The notes: generated by a model not told the origin, from the sequence alone. 64,000 nucleotides of DNA from an uncultured Candidatus Saccharibacteria bacterium (GCA_964481175.1 CAYZSZ010000001.1:1602-65601), one strand, 5' to 3'. Positions 8,975-61,927 are shown, counted from the first letter of the stretch. Numbers and translations: made by a program.

Positions 8975-8979
8975 TGATA

Positions 8980-9008
8980 TTGCAATATAAGCATATCTCT
9001 GCTAGTAT
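8980..9008 (+). promoter_or_regulatory. sigma70-like promoter TTGCAA-N17-TAGTAT upstream of infA cluster
   Basis: -35 at 8980-8985, -10 at 9003-9008. Confidence 0.4.
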
Positions 9009-9028
9009 ATCGAAACGCGCATTTACGA

Positions 9029-16258: not shown

Positions 16259-16288
16259 AAAAAGCCCCTTGACCAAGGGTGCTTTTTT
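16259..16288 (+). terminator. putative terminator after dnaK
   Basis: Imperfect CCCTT-GACC-AAGGG hairpin followed by TTTTTT. Confidence 0.35.
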
Positions 16289-16305
16289 GTTATAGTGAAG
16301 CCACT

Positions 16306-19300: not shown

Positions 19301-20523
19301 CACTTAAAACACCACTTCCAACCACTTCATTCACTGAGACTTTTACATTTACAGCAAGCGACGGGCGCCTAGCAAGTAACAACGCTACCATAACATTGCA
19401 GTACACAGTAACAGCTCCACCAAAATACAATCTTACTGTTTCAAAAACAGGGCAGGGCACAATACAAGGAACTGGTATTTCATGTGGAGTAGACTGTGCC
19501 GAACAAATAAATGCCGGTAGTGTTATTTCACTTCTTGCAATACCTGCTTCTGGATACACATTTAGTAGATGGACGGGCGACTGTACGAGCACCTCAATCT
19601 CTTGTTCGGTTACATTGGACAAGCCAAAGACTGTTAATGCAATCTTTGTTCTGGCTTTGAATCTAGACGCAGATGGAGACGGTATACTACTCCCACTAGA
19701 CAAATGTCCAAACACACTTCCTGCCGTTCGAAATCAAGTAAACCGTGCTGGATGTGTCCGACCAAAACTTACTAAGTTCACAACCAAACCAGTTGTAGAA
19801 GATGACATCAGTGCAGTTCCAAACGTTGAGCTCGGTATAAACAATGTTGGAAAAATCAAATTCAACACACCAGTAGCACTTACTCGCGAGAATGCTGTAA
19901 TCGACATAGACGCAAACGTTATTATTGAACAAGACAAAGTGGAGATTAAATCTTCAGTAATTCCTGAGCTCAACAGGCCAGCAACTATCACTCTCTACAA
20001 TATCGACGAAAAAAATCCTCGTATTCTGCGTGACGGCGTAGTCTGTTCTGAGCCGCAGTGTAAGATAGAGTCATTCTCAAATGGAACACTGGTCTTTACG
20101 GTTAGCGGCTTTTCGCTCTATACTGTAGAAGAGACTCCGGTCACTGCCACATCTACTCCTAACGTCGAAGAAAAACCAAAACGTAGAGGTGGTGGAGGGG
20201 GAGGGGGAGGCGGAGGTGCTCCAAAATCTGCAACCTCAAACGAAGAGTTGATCGCACAGCTTACTGCTCAACTCAACATGCTTATCGCCGAACTAAATAG
20301 ACTGACAGGCGGAAGCATGCTCACTTCAGACCTTACACAAGGTATGCGTGGAGCAGAGGTCACAAAATTACAAAACAAACTTACTGCAAAAGGATTCCCA
20401 GTAAGTTCTAGCGGATACTACGGAACACAGACAACAACAGCAGTAAAGAAATTTCAGACAAGTAAAGGCATCACACCGACAGGAAATGTAGGTCCCCTTA
20501 CTCGAGCTCAACTAAACAAATAA
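16306..20523 (+). CDS. giant secreted multidomain surface protein (domain order in evidence)
   Basis: Signal peptide; SGL/glucose-dehydrogenase-like beta-propeller ('HNGGALHFGKDGKLYVAVGDGG'); Ig/PKD-like domain; divergent trypsin-like domain ('ISPRHIIFAKHF', 'GDSGNPAF'); two InlB-B-type repeats ('GGINCGTNCSAQY...SGWSGDC', 'GISCGVDCAEQ...SRWTGDC'); thrombospondin-type-3 'DADGDGILLPLDKCPN'; Gly10 tract; C-terminal PG_binding_1-like domain. Confidence 0.7.
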   Translation: MKKLIPVILFSLLLPVFVVFAQTPAYKDMTYVSGFAPATSMEFAPDGRIFVAERGGKVRVIKNGQLLPTPFLTVSVALNGERGLSGITLDPNFRTNGYVYIYYTRANEPIKNRLSRFTVSATNPDVADPNSEKILIDDIGSDSGIHNGGALHFGKDGKLYVAVGDGGSFRANAQILTNLSGKILRINPDGTIPNDNPFIGYSLPGVRTEIWAFGFRNPFTFAVDPVSGKIYVNDVGETTWEEINILQRDGNYTWPRCEGPQNTGVGECADSDFQYPLYAYNHNKKGASITGAAFYKGDYYFGDMVLKVIRKMNSNNAVSDFISTSELPVDIDAGPDGNLYYLGYGGKVMKIVAQDTPINGLCAVTVVNICHSGTFTDLPDSATHALWSCVGSSGGTTASCSVPLSSNKLPTATITTPVVNAKYNAGQTISFSGTGTDPEDGTLPASAFSWSVVFHHNTHTHPFLGPITGKTGDSFVVPNTGELADDVWYRIYLTVTDSKGAKSEVYRDVYPNVVTLTFRTNPAGKNVTVDGQPQTTPYVVKSVVGMKRIISVDSQDFFEWSNNGAREQTITTPTTDTAYTASFSAPRPTSVVMQPYYGSGDLSIHMQKEVDDRIGGNMANATTKSLWYTRGSNTAAWEQNPFTFLRGNGIGIDLNGQSPWNSLGQYARSGTLISPRHIIFAKHFRLSAGTTVVFVDSTNRIVERTIEKVELAPDPLDIGVGLLNKDVPENIPFYPIISRSIWQQYLGNVGTNVDIPIIYLDLEDKIGVHVIKANALYSNSANLSHVKGTGKRAEFDEPIVLGDSGNPAFAIIGGQPVLLFTHFDFPFGPNFATHFDLINGLMTKLGGGYQLSTLDLSRFDTSVPKFTLTVSKPIGGTVIAAGGINCGTNCSAQYNKDTEVSLAADKATGYVFSGWSGDCTGTGLCTVKMDKAKTVTANFTVANTAPIAQNATFTFSGTSTTVALSASDAQNDSLTYTLSTLSTPKGTLTKVNETTYTYTLKTPLPTTSFTETFTFTASDGRLASNNATITLQYTVTAPPKYNLTVSKTGQGTIQGTGISCGVDCAEQINAGSVISLLAIPASGYTFSRWTGDCTSTSISCSVTLDKPKTVNAIFVLALNLDADGDGILLPLDKCPNTLPAVRNQVNRAGCVRPKLTKFTTKPVVEDDISAVPNVELGINNVGKIKFNTPVALTRENAVIDIDANVIIEQDKVEIKSSVIPELNRPATITLYNIDEKNPRILRDGVVCSEPQCKIESFSNGTLVFTVSGFSLYTVEETPVTATSTPNVEEKPKRRGGGGGGGGGGAPKSATSNEELIAQLTAQLNMLIAELNRLTGGSMLTSDLTQGMRGAEVTKLQNKLTAKGFPVSSSGYYGTQTTTAVKKFQTSKGITPTGNVGPLTRAQLNK

Positions 20524-46905: not shown

Positions 46906-48183
46906 TTAAATCAAATCCAAGTACTCCCCATACCCCAATTCTTTCATTCTCTCTTTTGGGATAAATCTTAATGCAGCAGAGTTCATACACCACCGCTTTC
47001 CTCCTTTGTCCTGTGGTCCATCATCAAATACATGTCCAAGATGTGAGTCAGCGACAGCAGAACGGACCTCGGTGCGTTTTGTAAACAACGTATTGTCTTC
47101 GTGGAGAGTGACTGCTTTTTCTGAAATAGGTTTTGTGAAAGAAGGCCAGCCAGTTCCTGACTCGTATTTGTCTTTTGATGAAAATAGGGCTTCACCAGAA
47201 ACAATATCTACATATATTCCCTCTTCATGGTTGTCCCAATACTCATTTTCAAACGGTGGCTCCGTGCCATTTTCTTTTACTACATGATACTGGAGCTCGG
47301 TGAGCCCAGAATGTTTTTTAATGTATTCATTTCTTCCCGAAGCATTGCGGTAATATGTGTAGCGAACTGGATTCTTTTCATAATAGTCCTGGTGATAGTC
47401 TTCGGCTTTATAAAAAACAGGTCGTGGGAGGATCGGTATCGGTAGTCCTTTTGCTACTTCACGGGCGATCTTTTCTTCTTCTTTATTTCCAAAATATATT
47501 GCTGATGAGTACTGTAGTCCCCGATCGACAAAAGAGCCGGTCGTATCGTTTGGATCTGCGTGAGTCAAAATATGCTCGACTAGTTTCCGGTAATTTATCT
47601 TTGTAGCATCGTAGTGCACTTCGACTACCTCTCGGTGGCCTCCTGCTGCATAGTTTTCATATGTTGGATTAGCTGTGGTACCGCCAGCGTATCCAGAGAT
47701 GACATCTCCGACTCCACGTAGTTTTTCAAAATCTGCTTCGACACACCAAAAGCACCCACCAGCAAAGAGTGCTGTACTGTCAGCTGTCACTATTTCTTGT
47801 GTTGTTTCTGGTTTGTCTTTCCAAATATGTAGATAGACCCCGGCATAGTGGACGACAACATAGAGAAAGAAAATGTAGCCGACAACACAGGTGATCACAG
47901 TGAGTGCGACTGTATTTATGATTTCATTTCTGCGACGCTTTGCTTCATCGATCGTACATATTCCCTTTTTTCTCCTGAAATAAAGAAACAAAGCGATCAC
48001 CATGGCGATGAGTCCCGCTATACGAAAGACCCATTTGTAGTCTCCATACAGTGTGTCAGCGAGAGAGGTGGCAAAGCCCAATGTGCCGATACCAAACACA
48101 ACTAGAATCACCGGAGAAAGACAGCAGAGTGAAGCGATGATGACTGGCACAGAACTTATTTTGAGGATTTCTTTGATATTCAT
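46906..48183 (-). CDS. msrAB: membrane-anchored methionine sulfoxide reductase MsrA-MsrB fusion with MerT-like N-terminal domain
   Basis: N-terminal TM domain with vicinal Cys '[10 protein letters not shown]'. MsrA '[11 protein letters not shown]'. MsrB C-terminus '...[13 protein letters not shown]'. Confidence 0.8.
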
Positions 48184-48272: not shown

Positions 48273-48869
48273 ATGTCCTTTAACATCAGAAACGTTCAAT
48301 TCGTGTTCGCACGTCACGGTCAGGCCGATCCGGCGAAAATCGGACAGCAGGACCAAGACCGGCCGCTCAATGAGACGGGAATCGAACAAGCAAAAAGCCT
48401 GGAGCGAATGCTTGTGAACATGGTCTTCGACCTCGCGCTCATTTCGCCGACGAACCGCAACTGGCAGACTGCAGAGATCGTGCTCGAAGACATGCGGCCT
48501 GAGATGATGGAACTGGAAGCCCTCCTCAATCACCAAGACGGCAGTGTCAACGCCGACATCAAAGCGATGTATGAGGAGCTTGGGCACTCCACTCTCCGTG
48601 CCTACCTCAGGCACCCAAAGGCAGAGGCGCTGCGAAGTTTTGCTGAGCATGCGGCTCGTGAAATCGAAAGCGAAGTCGCTCTTCGGGCAGACGAGGCCAC
48701 AGCGTTTGACGTCTTCGTCTCCGGCAATAGCGTCCTCATGAACGCGATCATCAGCGAGATGTTCCCCACCTGCGCCGCAAACGTACTCGACTTCGTCTTT
48801 ACCGAGGGCGGTGCGGTCAAGATCAGTGTCGACCATCATGGTGATGCGACGTTCATCGTCGTGAACTGA
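48273..48869 (+). CDS. histidine-phosphatase superfamily protein, SixA-like (copy 1)
   Basis: 'VQFVFARHGQADP...DRPLNETGIEQAKSL...LALISPTNRNWQTAEIV' parallels SixA 'VFIMRHGDA...RPLT..G...LISPFLRAEQT'. GC-rich. Confidence 0.55.
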   Translation: MSFNIRNVQFVFARHGQADPAKIGQQDQDRPLNETGIEQAKSLERMLVNMVFDLALISPTNRNWQTAEIVLEDMRPEMMELEALLNHQDGSVNADIKAMYEELGHSTLRAYLRHPKAEALRSFAEHAAREIESEVALRADEATAFDVFVSGNSVLMNAIISEMFPTCAANVLDFVFTEGGAVKISVDHHGDATFIVVN

Positions 48870-49672: not shown

Positions 49673-49710
49673 CCCCACCACGTCGGAAGACCTGGTGGGG
49701 TTAGTTTATT
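49673..49710 (+). terminator. terminator after SixA-like copy 2, shared with convergent gene
   Basis: CCCCACCA-N12-TGGTGGGG stem followed by a T-rich tail. Confidence 0.5.
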
Positions 49711-50615
49711 CTGATTAGGCTTTTTTCTGAATCGATTTCAATAACTGCTCCGTCTTTTATTATTTTACTTGCTACTTTTGTTTCTGTAACAAAAGGTTTT
49801 CTGAAAGCATATACGCTAGCGAAAATGGCGATGTCAGCGTGACTCGTCACCCCTCCCTCATCCGTCACGATCCCCGCAGCTTTGTGAAGTATTGGTAGGT
49901 AGAGGGGTGTGGTCATGGGAGCGACGAGGATGTCGCCTTCGTTTAGTTTGTGAAAGTCTTTGGGTGAGAGGATGATTTTGGCGATGCCTTTTACATTGCC
50001 TTTGTAGGCCACGTTCCCTTTTATTTCTTTTACCCGCTCCACTACTTCTTCGACATACTCAAAATTATTTTTCTTTAAAAACTCATCCCATGAAAGCGGA
50101 ACATAGGTACCAGAGTGAAATATAAAAGTATCTGGTACCGGGACATGTTCGACGGCTTTGTAAAAAGGCTCGAGTGCGGCATCGACGAGCTCGCGGTATA
50201 TGCGGCAGCGATTTATGATCTCTTCACTTCGATCTGTCTGTATATCAGCACTCCACATATTTGAAATATAGTATGGGACAACTGCGTGGACGTAGAGTCG
50301 GGCAAAACAATCGACGAGTTCGGGGATACTTACTTTGTCGTGCAGCTTTTGCTTGAACTGTTGTATCAAGTCTTTGCAAACATCAATATTGGTTTTAAAT
50401 GCATCCGAGTACGCATAGGCAAACATCAATGGTTTTAGCCGCGCATGCTCCTCTTCTGCTCGGATAGAGTCCATCCGCTCACCATCATACTTCATGATGT
50501 AGTGCTCGTACGCATCACCGATGAGGTCACGGAGATATTTTGTCTGAGCCAAAGAGGCTGCTTCAAACATCGGTGGAGCTATGTATCGAGTGCCCATTTT
50601 CTGAAGGCGGATCAT
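49701..50615 (-). CDS. PEP-utilising-enzyme mobile (phosphohistidine swivel) domain protein, divergent head-less paralogue P1
   Basis: C-terminus 'GDILVAPMTTPLYLPILHKAAGIVTDEGGVTSHADIAI...' aligns with the swivel domain of P2-P5, but it lacks the 'AREMKIPCV' block. Confidence 0.55.
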   Translation of the reverse strand: MIRLQKMGTRYIAPPMFEAASLAQTKYLRDLIGDAYEHYIMKYDGERMDSIRAEEEHARLKPLMFAYAYSDAFKTNIDVCKDLIQQFKQKLHDKVSIPELVDCFARLYVHAVVPYYISNMWSADIQTDRSEEIINRCRIYRELVDAALEPFYKAVEHVPVPDTFIFHSGTYVPLSWDEFLKKNNFEYVEEVVERVKEIKGNVAYKGNVKGIAKIILSPKDFHKLNEGDILVAPMTTPLYLPILHKAAGIVTDEGGVTSHADIAIFASVYAFRKPFVTETKVASKIIKDGAVIEIDSEKSLIRIN

Positions 50616-50728: not shown

Positions 50729-51172
50729 GTGAATCCCAGCAAACCCTGTAAAATTCTTTGTGTTTGTCGCGGCAACGCCGACCGCAGTCCAGCAATGGCT
50801 ACTATCCTGGATTTGTTCCTGACGCGTGCCGGCGCTAACGTCATTTGTGACAGTGCCGGCCTGACTGAAAATGCTGCCAATGGTGGCCCAGCGCCACGGC
50901 ACGTGGTGACCGCAGGCAGGCGCATCGGAATCGACCTGTCGAGACACCGCCGCAAGCACATCAACTCACTGACTCTCACAAGCTACGACCTCATCATCAC
51001 GGTGGATGACGAAGTCGCATCTGTGCTCGTCAAGGCAGGTGTGCTGCCAAGAATGATCTACAACGCGAACATCCCGAACCCTTGGCCCGTTCAGTTCCAG
51101 GAGGACTATGACCAGACGTTTGGCCTGATCCTCGCCACCATGTACCGGGTGGTCAGTCGTTACTACCCGTAA
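50729..51172 (+). CDS. LMW protein-tyrosine-phosphatase / ArsC-like family protein
   Basis: P-loop 'ILCVCRGNADRSP' (C-X5-R-S). No clear DPYY general-acid motif. GC-rich. Confidence 0.55.
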   Translation: MNPSKPCKILCVCRGNADRSPAMATILDLFLTRAGANVICDSAGLTENAANGGPAPRHVVTAGRRIGIDLSRHRRKHINSLTLTSYDLIITVDDEVASVLVKAGVLPRMIYNANIPNPWPVQFQEDYDQTFGLILATMYRVVSRYYP

Positions 51173-51228
51173 GCGCAGCAATCGCCTGCAGCACGCAGCC
51201 CGACCAGACGAGTTCTGGTCGGGCTGAA

Positions 51229-52293
51229 CTATTTTATTATCTTAACAACTCCAGTATTAGCATCTACTTCAACTAGGTCTCCGTCTTTAAATACTTGCGT
51301 GGCGATTTTAGTATTCGTAACACATGGTATTTTCATTTCTCGAGCTACGATGGCTGCATGGCAAAGAATACCTCCAGCGTCAGTCACAAATGCTGCTGCC
51401 TGTTGCATAATAGGTAACCACTCTGGTCGCGTCATTGTAGTCATGAGAATCTCTCCAGGTTGAAACTTATTACAATCTTCATCTCTAAAGATAATTCTTA
51501 CCCTTCCCTGAACTAAGCCGGCAAAAGCCTTTGTACCCTTAATCTCGACTGTTCCGTCTTTTACTTCAGTAATTCTTGAAATCAGTTCCCTGGCCACTTT
51601 TCCCACAAATAGTTTTGCACCTTTACTATCAGTATAAGAAACAGAGTACTCGTATCTTTCTTTAAGATTATTATAATCTGGCAATGTTCCATTCTGAATG
51701 TAGTTTTTGAACTCATTTAATGACAACGCCTGGAGATACGCTTCGTTTATATTTTCTTTTTGACTGATCAAGCTAAACACGGCACAAATATATTTCTCTA
51801 TACTTGAGTACATGTGCTCTGTGTCTTTACGGGCTTTCTCAAAAAGAGCTAGTACTTCTATTTTTCTCTGTTCATTGCCCTCAATACTTTTAATTTCATT
51901 TGAAGCCCAAATCGGCACTAGAAAGTGTGGAATTAACTTCAAGTGCAAACTCACAAATTTTTCAAATTCTTCAGCCGAAGGGATCTTTGCATCTATGCCT
52001 ATGATTTTATCTATTTCGTTTTGAATTCTACTAAGTTCAGCTACTGATTTTTCTGCATACCCTGTCAGAATAATGGAGTTTTTTGCCAGAGTCATTGCAA
52101 CCTCTTTAGTTTCAGATTCTATTCTAAAAAGTGTAACTAGACCATTTTCATACCTGAATAGTATGTGCTCAAACCCAGCACCGACTTCCTTTTTCATTTC
52201 AAAAATGTACTCTTTTGCGAAAAGCTCTATCGAAATAGCAGAATATTTTGTAGTCCAGATCTTTACCCAATTTTGTTTTTGTATATTTTCCAT
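51229..52293 (-). CDS. PEP-utilising swivel-domain protein, head-less paralogue P2
   Basis: Unique ~260-aa N-domain. C-terminal 'GEILMTTMTRPEWLPIMQQAAAFVTDAGGILCHAAIVAREMKIPCVTNTKIATQVFKDGDLVEVDANTGVVKIIK'. Confidence 0.65.
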   Translation of the reverse strand: MENIQKQNWVKIWTTKYSAISIELFAKEYIFEMKKEVGAGFEHILFRYENGLVTLFRIESETKEVAMTLAKNSIILTGYAEKSVAELSRIQNEIDKIIGIDAKIPSAEEFEKFVSLHLKLIPHFLVPIWASNEIKSIEGNEQRKIEVLALFEKARKDTEHMYSSIEKYICAVFSLISQKENINEAYLQALSLNEFKNYIQNGTLPDYNNLKERYEYSVSYTDSKGAKLFVGKVARELISRITEVKDGTVEIKGTKAFAGLVQGRVRIIFRDEDCNKFQPGEILMTTMTRPEWLPIMQQAAAFVTDAGGILCHAAIVAREMKIPCVTNTKIATQVFKDGDLVEVDANTGVVKIIK

Positions 52294-53289
52294 TTATTTT
52301 ATTACCTTTACTATACCAGTATTCGCATCTACTTCAACTAGGTCTCCATTTTTGAGGAGCTGAGTCGCTTTTTTGACCCCTACCACACACGGTATTTTGA
52401 GCTCTCGAGAAGTAACCGCGGCATGGCTGATCACTCCACCGTGCTCGGATACGATCGCGCCTGAGATTTTCATAATGGGTAAAAGATCCGGTGTGGTAGT
52501 CGATGCAACGAGTATGTCTCCCTGCTCGAAAGTGTGCATGTCTTTTCGAGAGTTTATGATCTTCACTCTACCTTTAACCTTTCCGGGAAAAGCGACTTGC
52601 CCAGTCAGATCTTGCCTTTCCTCATTTGGATATTCAAAATCAAATTCGGCACAGACATCGTCCCAGGTATCATACAACCTATTATTTGTATATGCGTATC
52701 CAGCTAATCTTTTTTCTAAAACTTCATCACTTGGCAATCTGTCAGATAAAATCTCACTTAGTAAAAGTACATTGGCGTACTTGATTTTTTCTGGATATAT
52801 TTTCTTTGCAGAATTTCTAAAGACAGCAAAGCAACCTGGTGCAAAATATTCTGTATACTTTCGCATTTCGAGCAGTGCGTCAAAAGGAATACCTCGCTTT
52901 TCTCGGTACTCGATCGCCCACCACATATAGGCGATCCATGGGTAAAATATTTTGAGCTTATCGATAAAATCCTTGAACTCCTCACGTGACAAAGCTTTTT
53001 CTTCTCTCAGTGCGGTTTCTATACTTGGATAGTATGTTCGAATCTGCTGAATCGCGTATGCCTCATCATCATACTTGCCCGCTTGCTCACGTAGCCACTT
53101 TAGACCATCTGTATTACAAAAATAGTACGACAGCTTGCCATCGTTGCGACAAACGATGAAAGGCTGCACTAAAAATTCTTCTGTGCTCCACGGAAATCTT
53201 TTTGACCCCTCAAGCTCATGATGAATCTCGGTAAAACTGAGTGGTACGTCAAGATGGACTAGTTCTTCAATTTTGAGCTTCTTTTTCAT
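52294..53289 (-). CDS. PEP-utilising swivel-domain protein, head-less paralogue P3
   Basis: Unique N-domain. C-terminal '...GDILVASTTTPDLLPIMKISGAIVSEHGGVISHAAVTSRELKIPCVVGVKKATQLLKNGDLVEVDANTGIVKVIK'. Confidence 0.65.
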   Translation of the reverse strand: MKKKLKIEELVHLDVPLSFTEIHHELEGSKRFPWSTEEFLVQPFIVCRNDGKLSYYFCNTDGLKWLREQAGKYDDEAYAIQQIRTYYPSIETALREEKALSREEFKDFIDKLKIFYPWIAYMWWAIEYREKRGIPFDALLEMRKYTEYFAPGCFAVFRNSAKKIYPEKIKYANVLLLSEILSDRLPSDEVLEKRLAGYAYTNNRLYDTWDDVCAEFDFEYPNEERQDLTGQVAFPGKVKGRVKIINSRKDMHTFEQGDILVASTTTPDLLPIMKISGAIVSEHGGVISHAAVTSRELKIPCVVGVKKATQLLKNGDLVEVDANTGIVKVIK

Positions 53290-54302
53290 TACTTTAAAAT
53301 TTTCACGACTCCAGTATTCGCATCTACTTCAACTAGGTCGCCGTCTTTGAGGACTTTGGTTGCTATTTTGGTGCCCACAACACATGGCACCTTGAGTTCT
53401 CGACTTGCGATCGCTGCATGGCACGTTGCCCCACCTTCATCTGTCACGATTGCACCTGCAATTTTCATATATGGAACGTAATCTGGGTTAGTCATTTCAG
53501 TTACAAGAACATCGCTTGGTTGTATCTTTGAAGCGTCAGCTTTTACTCGAACAATTTTGACAGTACCTGTGACCTTACCAATCTGTGCTGGTCTTCCTTT
53601 TATCTCGACAACCTGTTCTGCTTTCACCACCTCTAAAGAAAGACCTTGATCAGTTAATATTTTTTCTAGTTGATCAAGTGGAAAAACTCTACGATTAAGC
53701 ATAAAACAACCTTGCAGGCGCTCGAAGACTTCTGGCTTTTTGCCTTTTGCTATTGAAATAGCCTCTTCTGGCAAGAGAACAGAGACAAACTGTTTATATT
53801 GCGGATAATAGTTATTCCAAAACTCTACATATAACTTATTTGCTTCCTCAGAATATTTCTCAGCTTCGATACGACGATCGAGGGTCTCTTTTTTAAAATC
53901 TGCTGGTGCATTTTCACTATCTGGTACACCGAAGACAGTATTCATGGCTGACCACCACTCAACAAGAAGTGAATAATACTGAGCTAACTCATCTGCATTT
54001 GTAATCTTTTTTTCTTGTTTGAGATACGGAGAAAGCTGTATCCAACTTTCATCTAGCGTCTTTATTATTTCTGATTGAAAAGAAGGCTCAGTGACTTTTA
54101 CTTTTAAAAGCGACTCGATCTCTTGTAACTCGATTTGAGAATACCAGACCGAGCCTTTTTGACCCTCAGGTGAGACGATAAATAAATTGTTTTTTACTTC
54201 GTGGTTGAGAAAGCGTTTGTAACCCAAACGATCACTGTCATTCCACATTGTGAAATAGAACAATGTTTTTTCCCGAGAAAAGATGTTTGATAAAGTGATC
54301 AT
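53289..54302 (-). CDS. PEP-utilising swivel-domain protein, head-less paralogue P4
   Basis: Unique N-domain. C-terminal '...SDVLVTEMTNPDYVPYMKIAGAIVTDEGGATCHAAIASRELKVPCVVGTKIATKVLKDGDLVEVDANTGVVKILK'. Start overlaps the P5 stop (ATGA). Confidence 0.65.
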   Translation of the reverse strand: MITLSNIFSREKTLFYFTMWNDSDRLGYKRFLNHEVKNNLFIVSPEGQKGSVWYSQIELQEIESLLKVKVTEPSFQSEIIKTLDESWIQLSPYLKQEKKITNADELAQYYSLLVEWWSAMNTVFGVPDSENAPADFKKETLDRRIEAEKYSEEANKLYVEFWNNYYPQYKQFVSVLLPEEAISIAKGKKPEVFERLQGCFMLNRRVFPLDQLEKILTDQGLSLEVVKAEQVVEIKGRPAQIGKVTGTVKIVRVKADASKIQPSDVLVTEMTNPDYVPYMKIAGAIVTDEGGATCHAAIASRELKVPCVVGTKIATKVLKDGDLVEVDANTGVVKILK

Positions 54303-56284
54303 TTTATTATCCTAACTATACCCTTTTCTGCATCAACTTCAACTAAGTCTCCGTCTTTAAATACTTGTGTGGCAATCTTGGTGCCTATCACACATGGTTT
54401 TTTCATTTCACGAGCAATGATCGCTGCGTGACATGTTATACCTCCTTCATCAGTTACAAACGCGGCAGCCTTTTTCATCGCTGGCACCATATCAGGTGTA
54501 GTCATTGGTGATACAATAATCTCACCTTCTTTTGTTTGATCAACTTGGTCTTTTCTTTTTACTATCCTAACCACGCCGCGCACATTTCCTCGGTAGGCAC
54601 TCTGTCCTTTTATTCCGTCTTCGGTTTGTTCTCCACTATCGATAATAAATTTGAACTCAGGAAATTTCTTTACCAAATCACCGAAACTAATTACACCGAC
54701 AAACAAGCCAGGAACAAGCGCAAAGCCTGTATCTCTTTTTTCAAGCTCTGTTTTGTCGATCTTTACGCCAAGCTCCTCCCGAGTGACATATACAGATAAA
54801 TAACCAAAATCAGGGTATATATTATTGAGTGCTCGTGTGATTGCTGCATTACACTCTGCGAAGAAAACATCTTTCTCTCTAAACTCGCTCGCCAACTTTT
54901 GATACTCCGCAGGAACTCTCTGGTCGACAAGCGCCGTATAGAGGATTACAAAATCAGACACACCCGCGTACACAAGCTCAACAAAAGAGTTGAGCTCTTC
55001 GAGAGTTTTAATATCTTTTTTCCACCATTCTTGAGCCTGAGCAAGTATCTGAAAATACCTTTTGTGGACAGCTGGAAAAAAATCTTTGTCTGAAATAAAT
55101 TTTTCTACAAGAATATCAACAAGCCACTGATTTGTTTTTACATTTTCCCAGACTTCTTCGACTCCATCTTTCATGAAATAAAGATATGGAGAGCTATGTG
55201 GGTACTCTTTGAGATCTAATTTCTTTATAATGCCCTCTCTATTTGCAGTGATCCATGCCTGCTGCATGATGATTGAAAAGTTTCGGGTGTATGCTTTGAC
55301 GTATGTTTCTCGTTCTTCCTGTTCTAGAGATACTTGCCTGGGACTCAATGTCGTAATCGGTCGACTTTGCACGACATAGAACTCACCTCCTTCATATGCC
55401 CACTCGATATCGCATGGAAAGCCGTAATGCTTTTCGATGTTTAAAATAATTCCTGAAAGCTCGAGTATGCCTGCTTCGTTGAGTACTTGTGAGCTCGCTT
55501 TTGGCTCGGCGATATCTTTCCATTCATTTCCTCCACCTTCTACACGATATAATGCGCGCTCCTGTGTAGAAACATTGATATCGATAATCTTTCGTGGTTC
55601 CTTTTCTACTACATAGCTATCCGGTGTCACCGATCCAGAAACGATCGCCTCACCCAAGCCAAAACCTGCTTCGATGATGAGCTGATTGTAATCCTCAGTC
55701 ACTGGGTGTACTGAGAAAGCGATTCCTGAAACTTCAGAGTTGACCATCTTTTGGACAACAACGGCTACAGAGATCTTTGTGGTGTGTAGTCCTTTTTCAA
55801 AACGATAGAAGATGGCGCGTGGAGTAAAGAGTGATGCCCAGCAATGTTTTACTTTTTCCAAAAGTCCGTCTTTTGTAATATTCAAATAGCTCTCGAGCTG
55901 TCCTGCCCAGGCATGTTCTTTTCCATCCTCTGCTGTTGCTGATGATCGTACTGCAACGTATTTTGTGTCGAGTGCAGCAAAGGCCTTTTCAATATCTGCT
56001 TCGATATCTTTTGGCATGTCTTTTGAGAGGATGAGCTCTTTTATCTTTTCGCTCGCAGCCTCTACGGTATGGATCGCTTTGTGATCGACTGACTCGAGGA
56101 TGGCATCGATCTCCTGCACGAGATCTGTTTCTTTTATAAATTGTTCAAATGAGTTTGAAAGCACCACAAAGCCGGGCGGTACTGGTATGCCTGCTTGAGA
56201 CATCTCCCCGAGCGACGCACCCTTACCTCCTGCTATATCTGCATCTGTTTTTGATAGTTTTGAAAAGTGTCGTACGAGTTCCAT
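54299..56284 (-). CDS. PEP synthase-like / rifampin-phosphotransferase-like three-domain protein (ATP-grasp PPDK_N head + central domain + swivel His domain), P5
   Basis: N-terminus 'LSKTDADIAGGKGASLGEMSQAGIPVPPGFVVLSNSF' is a PPDK_N/PEP-synthase nucleotide-binding domain. C-terminus 'GEIIVSPMTTPDMVPAMKKAAAFVTDEGGITCHAAIIAREMKKPCVIGTKIATQVFKDGDLVEVDAEKGIVRIIK'. Confidence 0.75.
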   Translation of the reverse strand: MELVRHFSKLSKTDADIAGGKGASLGEMSQAGIPVPPGFVVLSNSFEQFIKETDLVQEIDAILESVDHKAIHTVEAASEKIKELILSKDMPKDIEADIEKAFAALDTKYVAVRSSATAEDGKEHAWAGQLESYLNITKDGLLEKVKHCWASLFTPRAIFYRFEKGLHTTKISVAVVVQKMVNSEVSGIAFSVHPVTEDYNQLIIEAGFGLGEAIVSGSVTPDSYVVEKEPRKIIDINVSTQERALYRVEGGGNEWKDIAEPKASSQVLNEAGILELSGIILNIEKHYGFPCDIEWAYEGGEFYVVQSRPITTLSPRQVSLEQEERETYVKAYTRNFSIIMQQAWITANREGIIKKLDLKEYPHSSPYLYFMKDGVEEVWENVKTNQWLVDILVEKFISDKDFFPAVHKRYFQILAQAQEWWKKDIKTLEELNSFVELVYAGVSDFVILYTALVDQRVPAEYQKLASEFREKDVFFAECNAAITRALNNIYPDFGYLSVYVTREELGVKIDKTELEKRDTGFALVPGLFVGVISFGDLVKKFPEFKFIIDSGEQTEDGIKGQSAYRGNVRGVVRIVKRKDQVDQTKEGEIIVSPMTTPDMVPAMKKAAAFVTDEGGITCHAAIIAREMKKPCVIGTKIATQVFKDGDLVEVDAEKGIVRIIK

Positions 56285-56292
56285 GGTGATAT

Positions 56293-57267
56293 TTAACCAC
56301 TAATATACGATGTTATCAACTTACTTTCCTTCTCAAAACGAGCAACGGCCAGCTGTATCAATCGATCAATTAAATCTGCATAACCTAGTCCACTTGCCTC
56401 CCACAATTTTGGGTACATGCTGATATTGGTAAATCCTGGAATTGTGTTTATTTCATTTACAACAATTTTATTGTTTTTTGTTAAAAAGAAATCGACTCTA
56501 CCTAGCCCCTCACACTCGAGAGCCAAAAATACCTGCACAGCAATCCTTTGTATTTCTTTTGCCACTTCTGAATCTATTTTTGCCGGGATGATGAGCTCAG
56601 CACCATCTTGGTCTACATATTTTGCATTATATGAATAAAACTCATCATGCGGGACTATTTCACCCAGTACAGATGCGGTTGGTTTTTCATTTCCGAGGAC
56701 TGAGCACTCTATCTCTCTCCCCTGTATATACTCTTCGATAATTATTTTTCGATCAAACATAAAAGCTTGTTTTACTGCTTTATCAAAATCAGCTTTTGCT
56801 TTTACTTTACTCACACCCACAGATGAACCTGCATTTGCTGGCTTTACAAAGAAAGGCGATCCTAATTCTCTTTCTACATAGTCAAAATCAATATCCTTTT
56901 CTTTAAATGAAAGAAACTTTTTAGTGGGGATGCCGGCATCACGCAAAAGCCGATTCATCACATCTTTATCCATGCCAATTGCAGATCCCAAAACACTTGC
57001 TCCAACAAATGGAACATTTGCTAACTTTAAAAGTCCTTGGACAGTTCCGTCTTCTCCAAACGGGCCGTGCAGTAATGGGAAAAATACATCAGCATCTATT
57101 TGGTACATTTCCTTTTCCCATGTACCATCCTTTCTAATCAAAATCTTTTCTATCTCGTACTTGTCTTTATCAATAGCACTAGCTACATTTTCAGCCGAAC
57201 GAAGCGAAACTTCATGTTCCGCGGATTTACCGCCGTAGAGTAGTGCGATTTTGAGTTTTTTCATCAA
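56293..57267 (-). CDS. ddl: D-alanine--D-alanine ligase
   Basis: 'KIALLYGGKSAEHEVSLRSAENV' N-domain and ATP-grasp core. Confidence 0.85.
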   Translation of the reverse strand: MMKKLKIALLYGGKSAEHEVSLRSAENVASAIDKDKYEIEKILIRKDGTWEKEMYQIDADVFFPLLHGPFGEDGTVQGLLKLANVPFVGASVLGSAIGMDKDVMNRLLRDAGIPTKKFLSFKEKDIDFDYVERELGSPFFVKPANAGSSVGVSKVKAKADFDKAVKQAFMFDRKIIIEEYIQGREIECSVLGNEKPTASVLGEIVPHDEFYSYNAKYVDQDGAELIIPAKIDSEVAKEIQRIAVQVFLALECEGLGRVDFFLTKNNKIVVNEINTIPGFTNISMYPKLWEASGLGYADLIDRLIQLAVARFEKESKLITSYISG

Positions 57268-57270
57268 TTG

Positions 57271-57342
57271 TGACCCTACAGGGAATCGAACCCTGCTTTA
57301 AGCCTTGAGAAGGCCTTGTCCTAGCCGATAGACGATAGGGCC
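57271..57342 (-). tRNA. tRNA-Glu (anticodon CUC); CCA not encoded
   Basis: Hand-folded cloverleaf GGCCCTA-TC-GTCTATCGGCTAGGAC-A-AGGCC-TTCTCAA-GGCTT-AAAGC-AGGGTTCGATTCCCT-GTAGGGTC-A; 7-bp acceptor stem, T-loop GGTTCGATTCC. Confidence 0.75.
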
Positions 57343-57361
57343 GGTTTTTTCTTTATATTTA

Positions 57362-58603
57362 CTACCTATTTAGCCACTCTTTTTCTTGGCGTACTAATAC
57401 ATTAGCAGAATCTATACTTGGGTCAAGCAAGACTTTGACGATACGCTCCATGCGTATACCCTGCGATCCTTTGACCAAAACAATATCGCCATCACGAAGC
57501 AGTGCTGGTACTTTTTCTGCAGCTTCGATCGAGGTATTGAAATGGTGCTGCGCATTCATCCCACGTGAACGGAGACCGACAGATATGACGAAGTTTGCTG
57601 ACTGGCGAGCAACCTCACCGACTTTGGCATGAGCTTCGACTGCGTATTTTCCAAGCTCGAGCATATCGCCGAGGATAGCGACTTTGCGAGGTCCTTGGAT
57701 GTCTTTTAGGGTTTGGAGGGCACTGTAGACTGCGTCTGGAGATGAGTTGTATGTATCGTCCAAAAGCGTCATATTGTTTTTCCCTTTTAAAACATTCATA
57801 CGTCCTCGTGGTGGAATGTGTGATTCGAGGGCTTTTACGACAGTATCGAGTGATATGCCGACCTTTTTTGCAACGATCGCAGCAACGATGAGCGGGTACA
57901 CATGGTGTGTCCCGACCACGCCTTTTGTCTGGATATTTTTCTCTTCTCCATCAATGACAAGTGTCATCGACATACCCGTCACTCGCCCATTTTCATATGC
58001 CAATGAAATGTTTTTTGCATTTGTATTTAGACCGAAATGGATTGTTTCTTTTGCTTGGTCTGAAGTAATACCCTTTACGATCTCATCATCAGAAGAAAGG
58101 ATGAGGATACCGTCTTTTTTGAGTCTCTTTGCGAGATATGCTTTTTCTTTTGCGAGCTCCTCTGGGTCCTTGAAATACTCTACGTGAGCAGCAACCTTAC
58201 CGACACGTGTGATGATCGATATATCTGGGCGTAGCCAAGCAGTGAGATTTTTGATGTCATTTGGACGATCGGCTCCGACTTCGAGAATGAGATACTCAGG
58301 GTACACATTGTTAAAAACAATGAGCTCAAGACCGTGCAATATATTCTTTAGCCAAATGATGAGCGATGACCAGCCGTTTGGACAGCCGAGAATAGTGAGG
58401 GGTACGCCTAGTTCGCTATTGAAACTCTTTTCACTTTTGCGAACCTTGTGAGTAGAAGAAAGTGCTGTGTATATAGCGTCTTTGGTAGAAGTCTTCCCTA
58501 CACTCCCGGTAACAGCAATGATAAAAGGCTTGTACTTTTTCAAAACGAGCTGTGACTCGAATGATATGATTTCTACGATAATTTTTTTGAGTATAGATTT
58601 CAT
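57362..58603 (-). CDS. murF: UDP-MurNAc-tripeptide--D-alanyl-D-alanine ligase MurF
   Basis: Mur ligase P-loop 'AVTGSVGKTSTKD' and overall MurF architecture. Confidence 0.85.
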   Translation of the reverse strand: MKSILKKIIVEIISFESQLVLKKYKPFIIAVTGSVGKTSTKDAIYTALSSTHKVRKSEKSFNSELGVPLTILGCPNGWSSLIIWLKNILHGLELIVFNNVYPEYLILEVGADRPNDIKNLTAWLRPDISIITRVGKVAAHVEYFKDPEELAKEKAYLAKRLKKDGILILSSDDEIVKGITSDQAKETIHFGLNTNAKNISLAYENGRVTGMSMTLVIDGEEKNIQTKGVVGTHHVYPLIVAAIVAKKVGISLDTVVKALESHIPPRGRMNVLKGKNNMTLLDDTYNSSPDAVYSALQTLKDIQGPRKVAILGDMLELGKYAVEAHAKVGEVARQSANFVISVGLRSRGMNAQHHFNTSIEAAEKVPALLRDGDIVLVKGSQGIRMERIVKVLLDPSIDSANVLVRQEKEWLNR

Positions 58604-60321
58604 CGGTCGGGGTTTATTTCATAGTAGTTTATCAGAAACTTTGTAATATCGATAAACGGATTTGTCAGTGTCTCTGAAGCATATTGCGTATTCTTTGGAT
58701 AGACTTGGTACAAAAAGACGATGTACTGTGGGTCGTATGCGGGGAAATATCCAAAGAATGAGTGCAGATACCTGTCAGTATAATACCCTCCATTGACCGG
58801 ATCTGCAATCTGCGCAGTTCCTGTCTTTGCCGCGATACTATAGTGCTCCATTTTGACTGTTCCTTGGCGGAGTGCTTTGTCGACCACTTCGACGAGCATC
58901 TTGGTAACTGTTTCAGTTGTTTCTGATTTCAGTACTTGTTTTGGCTTTTCATACTCGACCGTTTCTGGAATACCACTGTCATGCTCTATTGTGTTTACGA
59001 GATGTGGAGTCACAAGCTTCCCTCCATTAGCCAAAATCGACAATGCTCGTATAGTCGCTATCGGACTCATCGATATACCTTGTCCATATCCCATCGTAAT
59101 ATGTTCAATGTCGCGTGTACCGTCGAGGTTACGGGAAATACCTCTCGTTTCATTTGGCTGATCGATACCCGTAAACTCTCCAAAACCAAATGATCTAAAG
59201 TAGTTCGAAATGTTTTTGTTTCCAGTTTTTTGTACGATGAAAGCAATACCGATGTTGAGCGACTGGCTGAGCACCTCCTGCATCGGCACTACCCCTCGCG
59301 CTTTCCCGTCATAGTTTGAAATCTTCTTCTGATCGACAGTGATAGTTCCTTTGTCGTTGTATGTAGTGTTTGCAGTGATCGATCCAGTGTCGATGCCGAC
59401 AGCCATCGTGAGTGGTTTGATGATCGATCCCATTTCGTATGCACTTTCAACGAGTGGGTTTGAGAATACTTTTGGATTCTTTTCTCCAGAGACATCGTTT
59501 GGATTAAAGTTTGGCAATGCAGCCATGGCGATGATGTCCCCTGTCTTTGGATTCATGACGATGACCCCGATTTCATCAGATTGCCATTTCTTGCGTGCAT
59601 CAGCGATCACAACCTCAGCATAGTTTTGTACTGAAGGTTCAAGTGTTGTCACCACATCTCCAGACTCACCTTTTGAAGCATGCCTGATTCCAGAAAATAT
59701 TTCTGCAAAAAAATTTCTAAACTGTCCTTTGTCATTTCGTACTAGTATGTCGTCATACTGTCGCTCCAAACCGTAGCGACCACGATACTCGGTACCTTGA
59801 AATCCCATGAGACCGATCGCATGGGCTGCCAAACTCTGCGCTGGATATGCTCTCCACGCATCACGATAGACGATCACACCGGGTATTTTCATCTTTTGGA
59901 TTTCTTCGCCTGTCTTTGCCTCGAGTCGTTTGCTCAGCTCTTCAAATGGATCATCTTTTTTTGCCGCTTTTTCCATAAACTCATCTTTGTCGAGCGCGAC
60001 AAACTGACGTAATCGTTCATATGTCTCTGCGGCATCATCGAGATCTTTTGGACTGATCGCAAGCGAAACTCCCTCCTGGATCGTAGCCGCACTCACTCGA
60101 GTACCGTTTTTTGATGTAAAAAATATACTTCCTCGGTCAAATAGTGGTGCACTACGACGTTCGTACTGGCGATTTGCACGTTCAGCAAATTCTTTTCCAT
60201 TGATAATCTGAACATGATAAAGCTTGCCAGCCAAAACCATGGCAGCAAAAATAACACATGCAATCACGATCCTAATTCTGATTGAATAGTTATCTAATTT
60301 CATTAGAAGTTGTACGAGCAA
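58600..60321 (-). CDS. ftsI: penicillin-binding protein (class B transpeptidase FtsI/PBP2-like)
   Basis: N-terminal TM helix, dimerisation domain, transpeptidase motifs 'GSIIKP' (SxxK), 'SQS' (SxN-type) and 'KTGTA'. Confidence 0.85.
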   Translation of the reverse strand: MLVQLLMKLDNYSIRIRIVIACVIFAAMVLAGKLYHVQIINGKEFAERANRQYERRSAPLFDRGSIFFTSKNGTRVSAATIQEGVSLAISPKDLDDAAETYERLRQFVALDKDEFMEKAAKKDDPFEELSKRLEAKTGEEIQKMKIPGVIVYRDAWRAYPAQSLAAHAIGLMGFQGTEYRGRYGLERQYDDILVRNDKGQFRNFFAEIFSGIRHASKGESGDVVTTLEPSVQNYAEVVIADARKKWQSDEIGVIVMNPKTGDIIAMAALPNFNPNDVSGEKNPKVFSNPLVESAYEMGSIIKPLTMAVGIDTGSITANTTYNDKGTITVDQKKISNYDGKARGVVPMQEVLSQSLNIGIAFIVQKTGNKNISNYFRSFGFGEFTGIDQPNETRGISRNLDGTRDIEHITMGYGQGISMSPIATIRALSILANGGKLVTPHLVNTIEHDSGIPETVEYEKPKQVLKSETTETVTKMLVEVVDKALRQGTVKMEHYSIAAKTGTAQIADPVNGGYYTDRYLHSFFGYFPAYDPQYIVFLYQVYPKNTQYASETLTNPFIDITKFLINYYEINPDR

Positions 60322-60625
60322 CTCCCTGTGCCTTCTTTGAAATATATACAGCTGATGTCGGTTCAGAAAAACCTAGCTCAACCGCAGTAGCAAGTGTAAC
60401 TGAGTTCTTTAATGAAAAATACTGTGCTTCGAGCATACCAATAGTAGCGCTTTTATTTCGATTGACCTTGAGCATCGCTTCTCGAGCGAGAATGTTGTGA
60501 ACTGTTGTGTGAACGAGGCCAGCATATGTAAGGACGAGTGAAAGGATGAGAAAAGCAAATACATAAAAAAGATGTTCTCTGTATGAGTTTACTCCGGATA
60601 TTGTATTTTGAATTGCTTTTGTCAT
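60290..60625 (-). CDS. ftsL: FtsL-like cell-division membrane protein
   Basis: Small bitopic protein between rsmH and ftsI with a TM helix and coiled coil. Confidence 0.5.
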   Translation of the reverse strand: MTKAIQNTISGVNSYREHLFYVFAFLILSLVLTYAGLVHTTVHNILAREAMLKVNRNKSATIGMLEAQYFSLKNSVTLATAVELGFSEPTSAVYISKKAQGVARTTSNEIR

Positions 60626-60626
60626 A

Positions 60627-61493
60627 TTATATTTTCTTTTCGATGATTCTCAATTTTGCACTGCGTGAACGTGGATTTCTGACTTTCTCCTCATCACTCG
60701 GCACTATTGGCTTTTTTGTTAAAATATTTGCTTCACTCTGCTTTTCTTTAAAAAATCTCTTCGTCACTCTATCTTCGATACTATGAAACGATATGACGGC
60801 CATCCTTCCTCCTGGGTTTAGGGCTTCGAATCCTTTCCGTAACCCTTCTTTCAGTGTATTGATCTCATCATTTACAGTGATCCGAAGTGCCTGGAAAGTT
60901 CTGGTTGCTGGATGTATCCTGCCTCGATGATAGCTACTTGGTGTTCCGAGCTTGATCGCTTCGACTAGTTCAAATGTGGTTTTGATCGGTCGAGATTCGA
61001 CGATCGATTTTGCAATCCTTCGAGAGTATCGTTCATCACCATATCCGTATATGATGTCTGCGATATTTGCCTCGTCCCAAGTGTTTACGATCTCGTCAGC
61101 TGTCAGATCATCTTTTGTTGGATTCTTTTTGAAAGTCATGAGAAGTGGCTCATCTTTTTGAAAGGTAAATCCTCTCCCTGAAGTTTCAAACTGATCTGAA
61201 GAGAGTCCGAGATCGAGCATAAAGGCATCTATCTTTGATATTTTGAGCGAAGCCAAAGCAATGTCTAAATTTCTGTAATTTTCTTGTATAAAAGTTCCTC
61301 CTTTGAGTCGCTTTTTGCTTCGTTCGATCGCCTCGAGGTCCTGATCCAGACCGATCACTGTAGCTCCTTTTTCAAGAGCGTATTCAGAGTGACCGCCAGA
61401 TCCCAATGTTCCGTCGAGATATATACTGCCTTTATGCAGATTAAGGCCGTCTATTGATTCATGTAAAAGAACAGTTGTGTGGATGAGAGCCAT
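60627..61493 (-). CDS. rsmH: 16S rRNA (cytosine1402-N4)-methyltransferase RsmH (MraW)
   Basis: 'HTTVLLHESIDGLNLHKGSIYLDGTLGSGGHS' SAM-binding motif. Confidence 0.85.
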   Translation of the reverse strand: MALIHTTVLLHESIDGLNLHKGSIYLDGTLGSGGHSEYALEKGATVIGLDQDLEAIERSKKRLKGGTFIQENYRNLDIALASLKISKIDAFMLDLGLSSDQFETSGRGFTFQKDEPLLMTFKKNPTKDDLTADEIVNTWDEANIADIIYGYGDERYSRRIAKSIVESRPIKTTFELVEAIKLGTPSSYHRGRIHPATRTFQALRITVNDEINTLKEGLRKGFEALNPGGRMAVISFHSIEDRVTKRFFKEKQSEANILTKKPIVPSDEEKVRNPRSRSAKLRIIEKKI

Positions 61494-61927
61494 TAGAGCA
61501 TTCCTACTTGGCTTAGTTTTTCCGCCAAGGAATCAGCCTGCTTCTCCACGACCTGTTTGTATTCGCCCCATGCTTTTTCATCCCAAAGCTCTACTCGAGT
61601 TTGCACTCCAACGACTGCAACTTTCGAATTGAGCTTTGCTCTTCCCTTTAAAAAGTCCGGGATGAGGACGCGACCGATTGTGTCGATCTCTGCTTCGACC
61701 GCTCCTCCCAAGAGAAATCGGTTAAAGCTTCGACTGTCAGCATTGAGCATAGAAGATTCACTTAGCTTTTCTGTGATTTTCTTCCATTCAGTGGTTGAGA
61801 AGACGAATATACAGTTATCAAGACCTGGAGTGAGCACAACTTTCTTGCCCATCTCAGTTCGAAACTTTGCTGGGAGAGAAAGTCTATTCTTTTCATCAAT
61901 GGTATGTGTGTATTCTCCGATCAACAT
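61493..61927 (-). CDS. mraZ: transcriptional regulator MraZ
   Basis: Two MraZ repeats with 'DEKNRLSLPAKFR' and 'DTIGRVLIPDFL'. Confidence 0.85.
   Translation of the reverse strand: MLIGEYTHTIDEKNRLSLPAKFRTEMGKKVVLTPGLDNCIFVFSTTEWKKITEKLSESSMLNADSRSFNRFLLGGAVEAEIDTIGRVLIPDFLKGRAKLNSKVAVVGVQTRVELWDEKAWGEYKQVVEKQADSLAEKLSQVGML

Follow-up and report, generated by a model that had tools for sequence, protein, structure and literature searches.

The swivel mechanism of phosphoenolpyruvate (PEP)-utilising enzymes is already known, as are the dikinase family of rifampin phosphotransferase (RPH) and a two-component (1:1) subfamily. RPH is an antibiotic kinase for which the swivel mechanism has been established and is the founding member of a bacterial and archaeal dikinase family described as 'large' and 'unexplored'; its second phosphotransfer needs Arg666-Glu667, with Lys670 and Gln337 (PMC4844700). 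In the two-component dikinases HpeHI, CreHI and PpsAB each of the two components is needed. HpeI is the ATP-grasp protein and HpeH carries domains resembling the rifampin-binding domain and the swivel, His581 of HpeH being essential, and HpeH alone can move phosphate from 4-phosphoacetophenone to acetovanillone (PMC12167813). VadK, a derivative of pyruvate phosphate dikinase (PPDK), autophosphorylates on a His and regulates enzymes by interaction (PMC13400623). The locus described here lies in 64,000 nt of DNA from an uncultured Candidatus Saccharibacteria bacterium (GCA_964481175.1 CAYZSZ010000001.1:1602-65601; this whole stretch is called the window and all positions are in its numbering). 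It encodes one protein with an ATP-grasp head, P5, and four head-less modules, P4, P3, P2 and P1, each ending in a swivel domain of its own. The array is a modest instance of a system widespread in Patescibacteria (Candidate Phyla Radiation, CPR) and DPANN archaea, in which a single head probably charges many His-carrier modules in trans. Such a hub-and-spoke arrangement would constitute a multi-module small-molecule dikinase of the RPH/HpeHI type.

The head protein and its head-less modules

The genes and domains of the array, with the ddl gene preceding it, are as follows.

56293-57267, minus strand: ddl (D-Ala-D-Ala ligase; Pfam Dala_Dala_lig_C/N), the gene upstream of P5
54299-56284, minus strand: P5, head protein, 661 aa (Pfam PPDK_N and PEP-utilizers)
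55316-56284, minus strand: ATP-grasp of P5, aa 1-323
54620-55309, minus strand: compact acceptor (central) domain of P5, aa 326-555, 230 aa
54302-54619, minus strand: C-terminal phospho-His swivel of P5, aa 556-661; His619 codon 54428-54430
53289-54302, minus strand: P4, head-less module, 337 aa; acceptor aa 1-230, swivel aa 231-337; His295 codon 53418-53420
52294-53289, minus strand: P3, head-less module, 331 aa; acceptor aa 1-224, swivel aa 225-331; His289 codon 52423-52425
51229-52293, minus strand: P2, head-less module, 354 aa; acceptor aa 1-247, swivel aa 248-354; His312 codon 51358-51360
51196-51226, no strand assigned: GC-rich hairpin with a 13-bp stem, between the convergent genes for P2 and a low molecular weight protein tyrosine phosphatase (LMW-PTP)
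49701-50615, minus strand: P1, divergent head-less module, 304 aa; acceptor aa 1-196, swivel aa 197-304; His259 codon 49839-49841

A preliminary description of this DNA, made from the sequence alone, had P5-P4-P3-P2 tightly packed 8 nt after ddl and P1 as a further head-less copy past the LMW-PTP gene. The open reading frames (ORFs) and junctions were reproduced in full. The gap between the ddl stop and the P5 start is 8 nt, the P5/P4 junction is an ATGA overlap, P4 and P3 overlap by 1 nt (the A of TAATG) and P3 and P2 abut. P1, whose ORF has a PEP-utilizers match, is separated from P2 by the plus-strand LMW-PTP gene. The hairpin at 51196-51226 is likely to be a bidirectional terminator closing a ddl-P5-P4-P3-P2 transcription unit. 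A sigma-70 promoter scan was uninformative, giving 16 sites against 17.7 expected.

Pfam searches located PPDK_N at aa 16-323 of P5 (E 2e-99), an ATP-grasp of the PPDK_N type with the nucleotide-binding motifs present, and PEP-utilizers at aa 585-655 (E 4e-27). P4, P3 and P2 matched PEP-utilizers alone (E 2e-24 to 3e-25; P3 2e-24, P2 2.5e-25) and P1 matched the same family at E 2e-15, PF00391 being above cut-off in all of P1-P5. The earlier claims that this domain ends every copy and that the ATP-binding head is found on P5 only were thus upheld, PPDK_N being detected by Pfam in P5 and in none of P1-P4. The catalytic His is kept in five out of five proteins within GG-x-x-(C/S)-H, in keeping with the general motif (T/S)-x-x-G-G-x-x-x-H (P5 H619, P4 H295, P3 H289, P2 H312, P1 H259) and the swivel domains are 39-63% identical to each other. 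No Pfam family covers any N-terminal domain (N-domain) of P1-P4 or the central domain of P5. The PEP/pyruvate-binding barrel, PEP-utilizers_C, gave no Pfam match in any protein examined, the domain order is not that of PEP synthase or PPDK, and no PEP-binding or other donor-binding domain was found in the modules or the window.

The predicted model of P4 (predicted local distance difference test, pLDDT, 95.5) matches RPH across 197 residues, about 90 of them past the swivel. That of P5 (pLDDT 88) has a flexible linker at 315-323 and, in its C-terminal part, the same predicted order of secondary-structure elements as P4.

Two other explanations of the proteins were rejected. P1-P4 are not colinear pieces of a single disrupted PEP synthase gene, since all the ORFs are complete and all have a swivel and full-length orthologues of their own. 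An anti-phage defence system was discarded because the PADLOC defence-protein models gave no match for P1-P5 at E <= 0.01.

The N-domains had been described as sharing almost no sequence with each other or with the central domain of P5. This impression is explained by pairwise BLAST, which gives weak colinear matches only (E 0.003-0.08), and at that level it stands. It does not survive comparison of profiles, which gives probabilities of 97-99.9% among P2-P5. Family alignments were built, the swivel was removed and the remainder compared profile to profile with hhalign (alignments of about 190-210 columns each), giving the following probabilities and E-values.

P5-central versus P4 N-domain: 99.9%, E 4e-32
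P5-central versus P3 N-domain: 99.9%, E 2e-31
P5-central versus P2 N-domain: 98.5%, E 2e-15
P4 N-domain versus P3 N-domain: 98.5%, E 2e-15
P4 N-domain versus P2 N-domain: 98.3%, E 1e-14
P3 N-domain versus P2 N-domain: 97.4%, E 1e-11

The P2 N-domain also matched modules of the long class described below (98.8%). P1 has few full-length homologues. The small family of its N-domain gave 95.5% against P5-central and 94.9% against P2, and 93-95.5% across P5-central, P4 and P2; the single sequence was non-significant in hhalign, significance appearing only once a few homologues had been added, and the comparison of P1 with P3 was non-significant throughout. Two motifs are common to the families: R-x(1-3)-E-x-(F/Y) (P5 R469-E470-K471, P4 R144, P3 'MRKYTEY', P2 R155/E159) and L-x-x-R-x-x-G (P5 R517, P4 R195/G198, P3 'EKRLAG', P2 R213). 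As judged from these alignments, the N-domains of P1-P4 and the central domain of P5 form a single homologous superfamily of putative acceptor domains. Given the profile matches and the shared conserved positions, the C-terminal two-thirds of P5 and the proteins P2-P4 and P1 are paralogous, with a conserved catalytic core and diverged surroundings.

P5 has the RPH-type single-chain order of ATP-grasp, acceptor domain and C-terminal swivel, with RPH and HpeI as the closest matches to its head. When aligned with RPH-Lm, the P2-family profile spans residues 698-866, which takes in about 65 residues of the rifampin-binding domain upstream of the swivel, with the L-x-x-R arginine of the P2 family opposite RPH R728. 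The distance from the R-x-E motif to this arginine is 48-58 residues here versus 62 in RPH. The acceptor domain appears to be a half-size relative of the rifampin-binding domain, about 230 aa versus about 430 aa; an RPH- or PEP-synthase-like architecture with a shorter central domain had been proposed originally. RPH differs further in being a stand-alone single gene, and there is no evidence here for rifamycin binding; the NCBIfam RIF_Ptrans_rph equivalog gave 343 bits against a cut-off of 999, the match being confined to the grasp and swivel.

By sequence, the grasp and swivel of P5 score best against PEP synthase (NF005057 454 bits; PDB 8a8e E 3e-98) and the swivel motif, GG-x-T-C-H-A-A-I-I-A-R-E, is PEP-synthase-like. 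However, the two NCBIfam PEP synthase models reached only 454 bits (cut-off 598) and 436 bits (cut-off 740) and matched only the grasp and swivel parts; there is no PEP/pyruvate-binding TIM barrel, and the swivel is C-terminal rather than central. The prodiginine ligases PigC, RedH and HapC have the same grasp-central-swivel architecture and their NCBIfam models gave 295-307 bits to the grasp and swivel, but the cut-offs are 1300-1350. Those ligases activate an aldehyde by phosphorylation for condensation in pigment biosynthesis, and no such pathway genes are present here. Since the barrel is missing and the PEP synthase, RPH and PigC/RedH scores are all below cut-off, the array proteins belong neither to the PEP synthases nor to the rifampin kinases but, as compact forms, to the RPH/HpeHI small-molecule dikinase superfamily.

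Array architecture in CPR and DPANN genomes

A scan of one genome per species with a P4-family query gave at least 79 loci, almost all from metagenome-assembled genomes (MAGs) of CPR or DPANN. Taxon labels are used as they stand in the records, where a few third party annotation (TPA) bins are labelled Gammaproteobacteria, Methanosarcinales or Rhizobium. Heads and swivels were counted with our own hidden Markov models for the two domains, in 21-kb views rather than whole genomes. The 47 loci of at least 19 kb contained 179 swivel domains and 29 heads, with no more than one head in any locus. Three or more modules were present in 25 loci, and in 20 of these the head was in view. The rule in these loci is therefore one head to n modules. 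As many as 13 modules were seen in one 21-kb view and the contig of a close relative carries 15 consecutive head-less genes. Consecutive module ORFs are less than 100 nt apart in 69% of cases and nearly all domains of a locus are on one strand. Most N-domains are either about 200-250 aa or about 350-400 aa long; those of the long class are the same domain with an insertion. The P4 and P2 families are large and consist of full-length head-less proteins (about 340 and 355 aa) from Patescibacteria and DPANN archaea at 30-69% identity; the cluster containing P1 was named Paceibacterota.

The ways in which one head is combined with its modules vary. A 693-aa head is accompanied by six head-less genes in locus L004, a head by four modules in L090 and by one module in L008, and a stand-alone 311-aa PPDK_N gene by three head-less genes in L007. 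Among 41 head ORFs, about 16-18 are stand-alone (311-357 aa) and lie next to head-less modules, nine are P5-like with one module, and the remainder are fused to 2, 3, 4, 6 or 8 modules. The largest fusions are uninterrupted ORFs from DPANN-labelled and unclassified MAGs: 3,768 aa with one ATP-grasp and 8 swivel modules (L011, 6878-18181, plus strand), 2,969 aa with one head and 6 swivels (L014, 8855-17761, plus strand) and 1,997 aa with one head and 4 swivels (L020, 7943-13933, plus strand). The best 132 representatives from a library of 1.84 billion proteins had 0-1 head and 1-6 swivels, and never two heads; one of the library proteins (P0370, 2,648 aa) has one head and 6 swivels. P5 homologues of about 1,000-1,150 aa consist of a P5-like protein followed by a second module, which in some is P4-like (40-47% identity).

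In a Woesearchaeota locus (L006) an uncalled ORF of 1,046 aa has the order grasp-central-swivel-central-swivel and is accompanied by a head-less gene. The gene caller had annotated only the last 327 aa of this ORF (6013-9153, plus strand), and a remnant of about 30 aa of a swivel C-terminus was seen directly after its grasp domain ('KVATIVLKDGDLVEVDANEGIVRVLKK').

The relationship between modules of the same array was examined with the N-domains of 208 modules in 33 arrays. For 89% of the modules the best match was in another genome, 61% had no BLAST-detectable relative inside their own array, and no module was 70% or more identical to an array neighbour. Recent tandem amplification or decaying copies were rejected on these figures. 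Low similarity within arrays, combined with conserved orthologues elsewhere, points to the modules being ancient, non-redundant paralogues, and on these sequence comparisons they would represent an old and maintained subfunctionalisation.

Proposed charging of the modules by a shared head, and its alternatives

In the mechanism that we propose, which assumes a dikinase stoichiometry, the ATP-grasp head of P5 would bind ATP and pass the beta-phosphate to the catalytic His of a swivel, AMP and Pi being released. The head would charge its own swivel in cis and the swivels of P4, P3 and P2, possibly also P1, in trans. Each charged swivel would then swing back to its own module's compact acceptor domain, the site of the conserved Arg/Glu residues, and phosphorylate a module-specific acceptor, probably the hydroxyl group of a small molecule. 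The array would thus be a panel of distinct specificities supplied by a single ATP-using hub, and the linked phosphatases described below, His_Phos-like and LMW-PTP, would either discharge the phosphohistidine or hydrolyse the products. A stand-alone head without a His carrier can act on partners only, so trans-loading appears to be obligatory in relatives with such heads. The preliminary description had proposed one ATP module, several divergent carriers and possible loading in trans. The ratio of 179 swivels to 29 heads, the stand-alone heads, the fusions and the HpeHI precedent all argue for this; the loading step itself is deduced from them.

HpeHI, CreHI and PpsAB resemble the array in that the subunit with acceptor and swivel is encoded apart from the ATP-grasp subunit, as for P1-P4. 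They differ in that their pairs are 1:1, whereas here there is one head to 4-5 modules, and up to 15 or more elsewhere. Their substrates are phenolic and they serve aromatic catabolism in free-living Actinobacteria and Proteobacteria (PMC12167813), in contrast to the CPR and DPANN hosts of the arrays. Furthermore, the head here carries a module of its own, the acceptor domains are about half the size (about 230 aa), fused polyproteins exist and a phosphatase is a constant partner. The PTS (PEP:sugar phosphotransferase system) follows an analogous logic, with one energy-coupling component, Enzyme I, feeding many substrate-specific phospho-carriers, and the array swivel is homologous to the His domain of Enzyme I. 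However, in the arrays the donor would be ATP through the ATP-grasp rather than PEP, there is no HPr, EII or membrane component, and every module has its own swivel. VadK (Rv1127c) is likewise a truncated member of the superfamily using a swivel His outside central metabolism, but it is a single mycobacterial gene with a regulatory role and is not associated with an array of RPH-type acceptor domains.

The arrangement had earlier been thought undescribed. Split 1:1 dikinases are published (PMC12167813) and to that extent the claim fails. For the one-head, many-module arrays and the multi-module polyproteins it stands provisionally, no description having been found in the literature searched, which omitted most subscription journals. 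Nor did the same literature yield a description of compact acceptor domains as a class, of a distribution almost confined to CPR and DPANN or of the partnership with phosphatases.

Several observations weigh against charging in trans by a common head. P5 carries a module itself, which means that trans-loading is not logically required in the window and there it is something that we infer. Five of the 25 large arrays (L016 and four others) had no head inside the 21 kb sampled, while in L009, as for some other heads, the head is solitary. Retrieval with a P4-family query means that the loci are not an unbiased sample of genomes. The swivel of P1 has a 4-aa insertion directly after the His and in the swivel alignment has lost the 'RE' of HAAIxxRE. 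That the conserved Arg/Glu motifs correspond to RPH Arg666/Glu667 is plausible, on the basis of spacing in the sequences and not of superposition. Finally, a phosphatase as partner would undo a simple phosphorylation to no purpose, except where the phosphate is an intermediate or the phosphatase has a regulatory role.

Some of these points would suit head-less modules that are independent of P5, acting as ATP-independent phosphotransferases from a donor metabolite to an acceptor or being charged in some other way, with the clustering due to ancestry and co-regulation. The transfer by HpeH alone from 4-phosphoacetophenone to acetovanillone (PMC12167813) is a precedent, and the complete module in P5 and the five arrays lacking a head in view are compatible with it. 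Such independence is nevertheless unlikely, as no PEP-utilizers_C or other donor-binding domain exists in the modules or the window, a head is in view in the other 20 large arrays, one head is fused with 2-8 modules in single polypeptides, and a stand-alone head that has no His carrier would be pointless except as a charger of partners in trans. To a similar degree we think it improbable that the modules are regulatory phosphohistidine proteins in the manner of VadK (PMC13400623), which would autophosphorylate or be charged in trans before binding or phosphorylating target proteins, with His_Phos (SixA-like), LMW-PTP and Fic proteins as opposing or parallel modifiers. The neighbouring families His_Phos_1, LMWPc and Fic do include protein phosphatases and AMPylators, and the SixA model is among the best matches for the His_Phos_1 genes, though far below cut-off; NCBIfam, however, cannot separate SixA from CobC or dPGM. 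Moreover, the acceptor domain appears to be a homologue of the domain that binds small molecules in RPH and HpeH, the head is closest to RPH and HpeI, and a panel of small ligands accounts better than a set of protein targets for the dozens of conserved and distinct acceptor-domain families.

The preliminary description took co-transcription with ddl, at the end of the division and cell wall (dcw) cluster, as a hint that the substrate is a precursor of the cell envelope or an antibiotic directed at the cell wall. The 8-nt ddl-P5 junction has no terminator, RPH is an antibiotic kinase (PMC4844700), and ddl lies within about 4 kb of the array in 5 of about 85 loci. Nevertheless, orthologous heads and arrays of close relatives (65-73% identity) are not beside ddl: neither the heads of L009 and L010 (73% and 67% identity), whose surroundings are unrelated, nor the arrays with P4 orthologues 61-68% identical in L004, L090 and the 15-module contig are adjacent to it. 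L088 is the only other locus with ddl directly upstream, and there 720 nt and an opposite-strand tRNA-Ala intervene between ddl and the head. The RPH equivalog scored 343 versus 999 bits. Archaea have no murein, yet the same arrays are found in DPANN archaea. Because the linkage to ddl is not conserved and the arrays occur in murein-free archaea, the linkage is lineage-specific and the inference of a cell-envelope function is not supported; we regard it as very unlikely. It can hardly be believed that P1-P4 are non-functional copies in decay, left by tandem duplications of P5 after loss of the head. The degenerate swivel of P1 and the very low pairwise similarity of the N-domains might suggest so, but the ORFs are intact, the catalytic His and the acceptor-domain Arg residues are invariant, and full-length orthologues (30-69% identity) of each paralogue occur in different phyla and domains. 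There are also no recent duplicates within arrays and the P4 fold is predicted with high confidence (pLDDT 95.5). Thus charging of the modules by a shared head remains the probable reading.

A wider version of this reading, possible though somewhat doubtful at present, is that CPR and DPANN organisms possess an as yet unrecognised network in which one charger serves a dozen or more distinct phosphohistidine modules, whether encoded singly or strung along polyproteins of as many as 3,768 aa, each phosphorylating a different scavenged or host-derived metabolite, with phosphatases resetting the phosphohistidine. If true, it would amount to a functional analogue of the PTS, soluble and driven by ATP, that could replace the conventional kinases missing from reduced genomes. 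Genomes of about 1 Mb that have shed most biosynthesis still spend 5-20 kb on up to 15 or more diverged modules, conserved across two domains of life, and this investment argues for an important function. Plausibly the function is in capturing or transforming compounds obtained from the host, a matter central to how CPR and DPANN organisms live. In addition, routine annotation of these proteins as 'phosphoenolpyruvate synthase', 'pyruvate, water dikinase' or 'PEP-utilizing enzyme' can falsely credit a genome with a gluconeogenic step. The arrays extend two-component dikinases to a 1:n architecture, their compact (about 230 aa) acceptor domains are a set in which to find new kinase specificities, and the phosphatase linkage provides a testable third component.

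Phosphatases and other neighbours

Three phosphatase genes flank P1 in the window.

48273-48869, plus strand: His_Phos_1 gene a, 198 aa, RHG present; Pfam E 2e-15; GC 0.559; 35% identical to the array-embedded homologue of L004
49014-49637, plus strand: His_Phos_1 gene b, 207 aa; Pfam E 3e-9; GC 0.579; member of the recurrent neighbour cluster
50729-51172, plus strand: LMW-PTP (LMWPc), 147 aa, between P2 and P1; Pfam E 2e-11; GC 0.565

When neighbouring ORFs were clustered, proteins of the histidine-phosphatase superfamily were the most recurrent partners of the arrays. A form of about 300 aa is encoded inside arrays, co-oriented and 0-43 nt from module genes; a form of about 200 aa is usually on the opposite strand, and the window has two of these. 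In the sampled loci, 21 of 22 His_Phos-like genes lay 1 kb or less from an array gene (binomial p 1.8e-13), corresponding to 10 per 100 kb within 1 kb of array genes, 0.3 at 1-4 kb and none farther away. HAD phosphatases recur in 7 loci. LMW-PTP recurs as well, being found in the window, inside the L042 array and, on the opposite strand, inside the 15-module array of the close relative; the gene at 50729-51172 probably encodes an accessory phosphatase. The His_Phos_1 and LMW-PTP families include P-N phosphatases (SixA, YwlE), so the linked phosphatases could discharge the phosphohistidine; alternatively they could act on the products. NCBIfam subtyping of the window phosphatases gave no discrimination, with SixA, CobC and dPGM all far below their cut-offs.

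By inspection, gene b has QH in place of the RHG arginine and keeps the downstream GH, while gene a keeps RHG and has 'SGN' at the expected second His. Each therefore lacks a different catalytic residue and they may be a complementary or a degenerate pair. The three window phosphatase genes are 56-58% GC, against a window mean of 42.8% and 44% for P1 between them. Genes for the form of about 200 aa in L004 (9285-9911) and L036 (12741-13304) are also 9-16 GC points above their loci, and the form of about 300 aa is not raised. Recent horizontal spread and a compositional constraint are both possible reasons for the high GC.

Less frequent recurring neighbours were Fic, PfkB, cytidylyltransferase-like, HD-like, CYTH and PTA genes. 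At least 5 loci (L007 8910-9245, L010 6018-7142, L090 2865-3929, L062 and L081) had a Fic-domain gene no more than a few kb from a head or array.

Upstream of the array the dcw cluster at 57270-61927 (minus strand) is reduced to mraZ-rsmH-(ftsL-like)-ftsI-murF-tRNA-Glu-ddl, and murE, mraY, murD, ftsW, murG, murC and ftsQAZ are not in line. The gene order given in the preliminary description, with ftsQAZ missing, holds, and Pfam confirmed mraZ, rsmH, ftsI and murF as well as ddl. The ORF at 60290-60625, named ftsL in that description, is a candidate and had no Pfam match. Inside the cluster one tRNA gene is present.

57270-57342: tRNA-Glu(CTC), between murF and ddl

Elsewhere in the window, an MsrA-MsrB methionine sulfoxide reductase fusion at 46906-48183 (minus strand) has an N-terminal membrane segment that is weakly MerT-like (23 bits, sub-cut-off), and the largest ORF, at 16279-20523 (plus strand), is 1,414 aa long.

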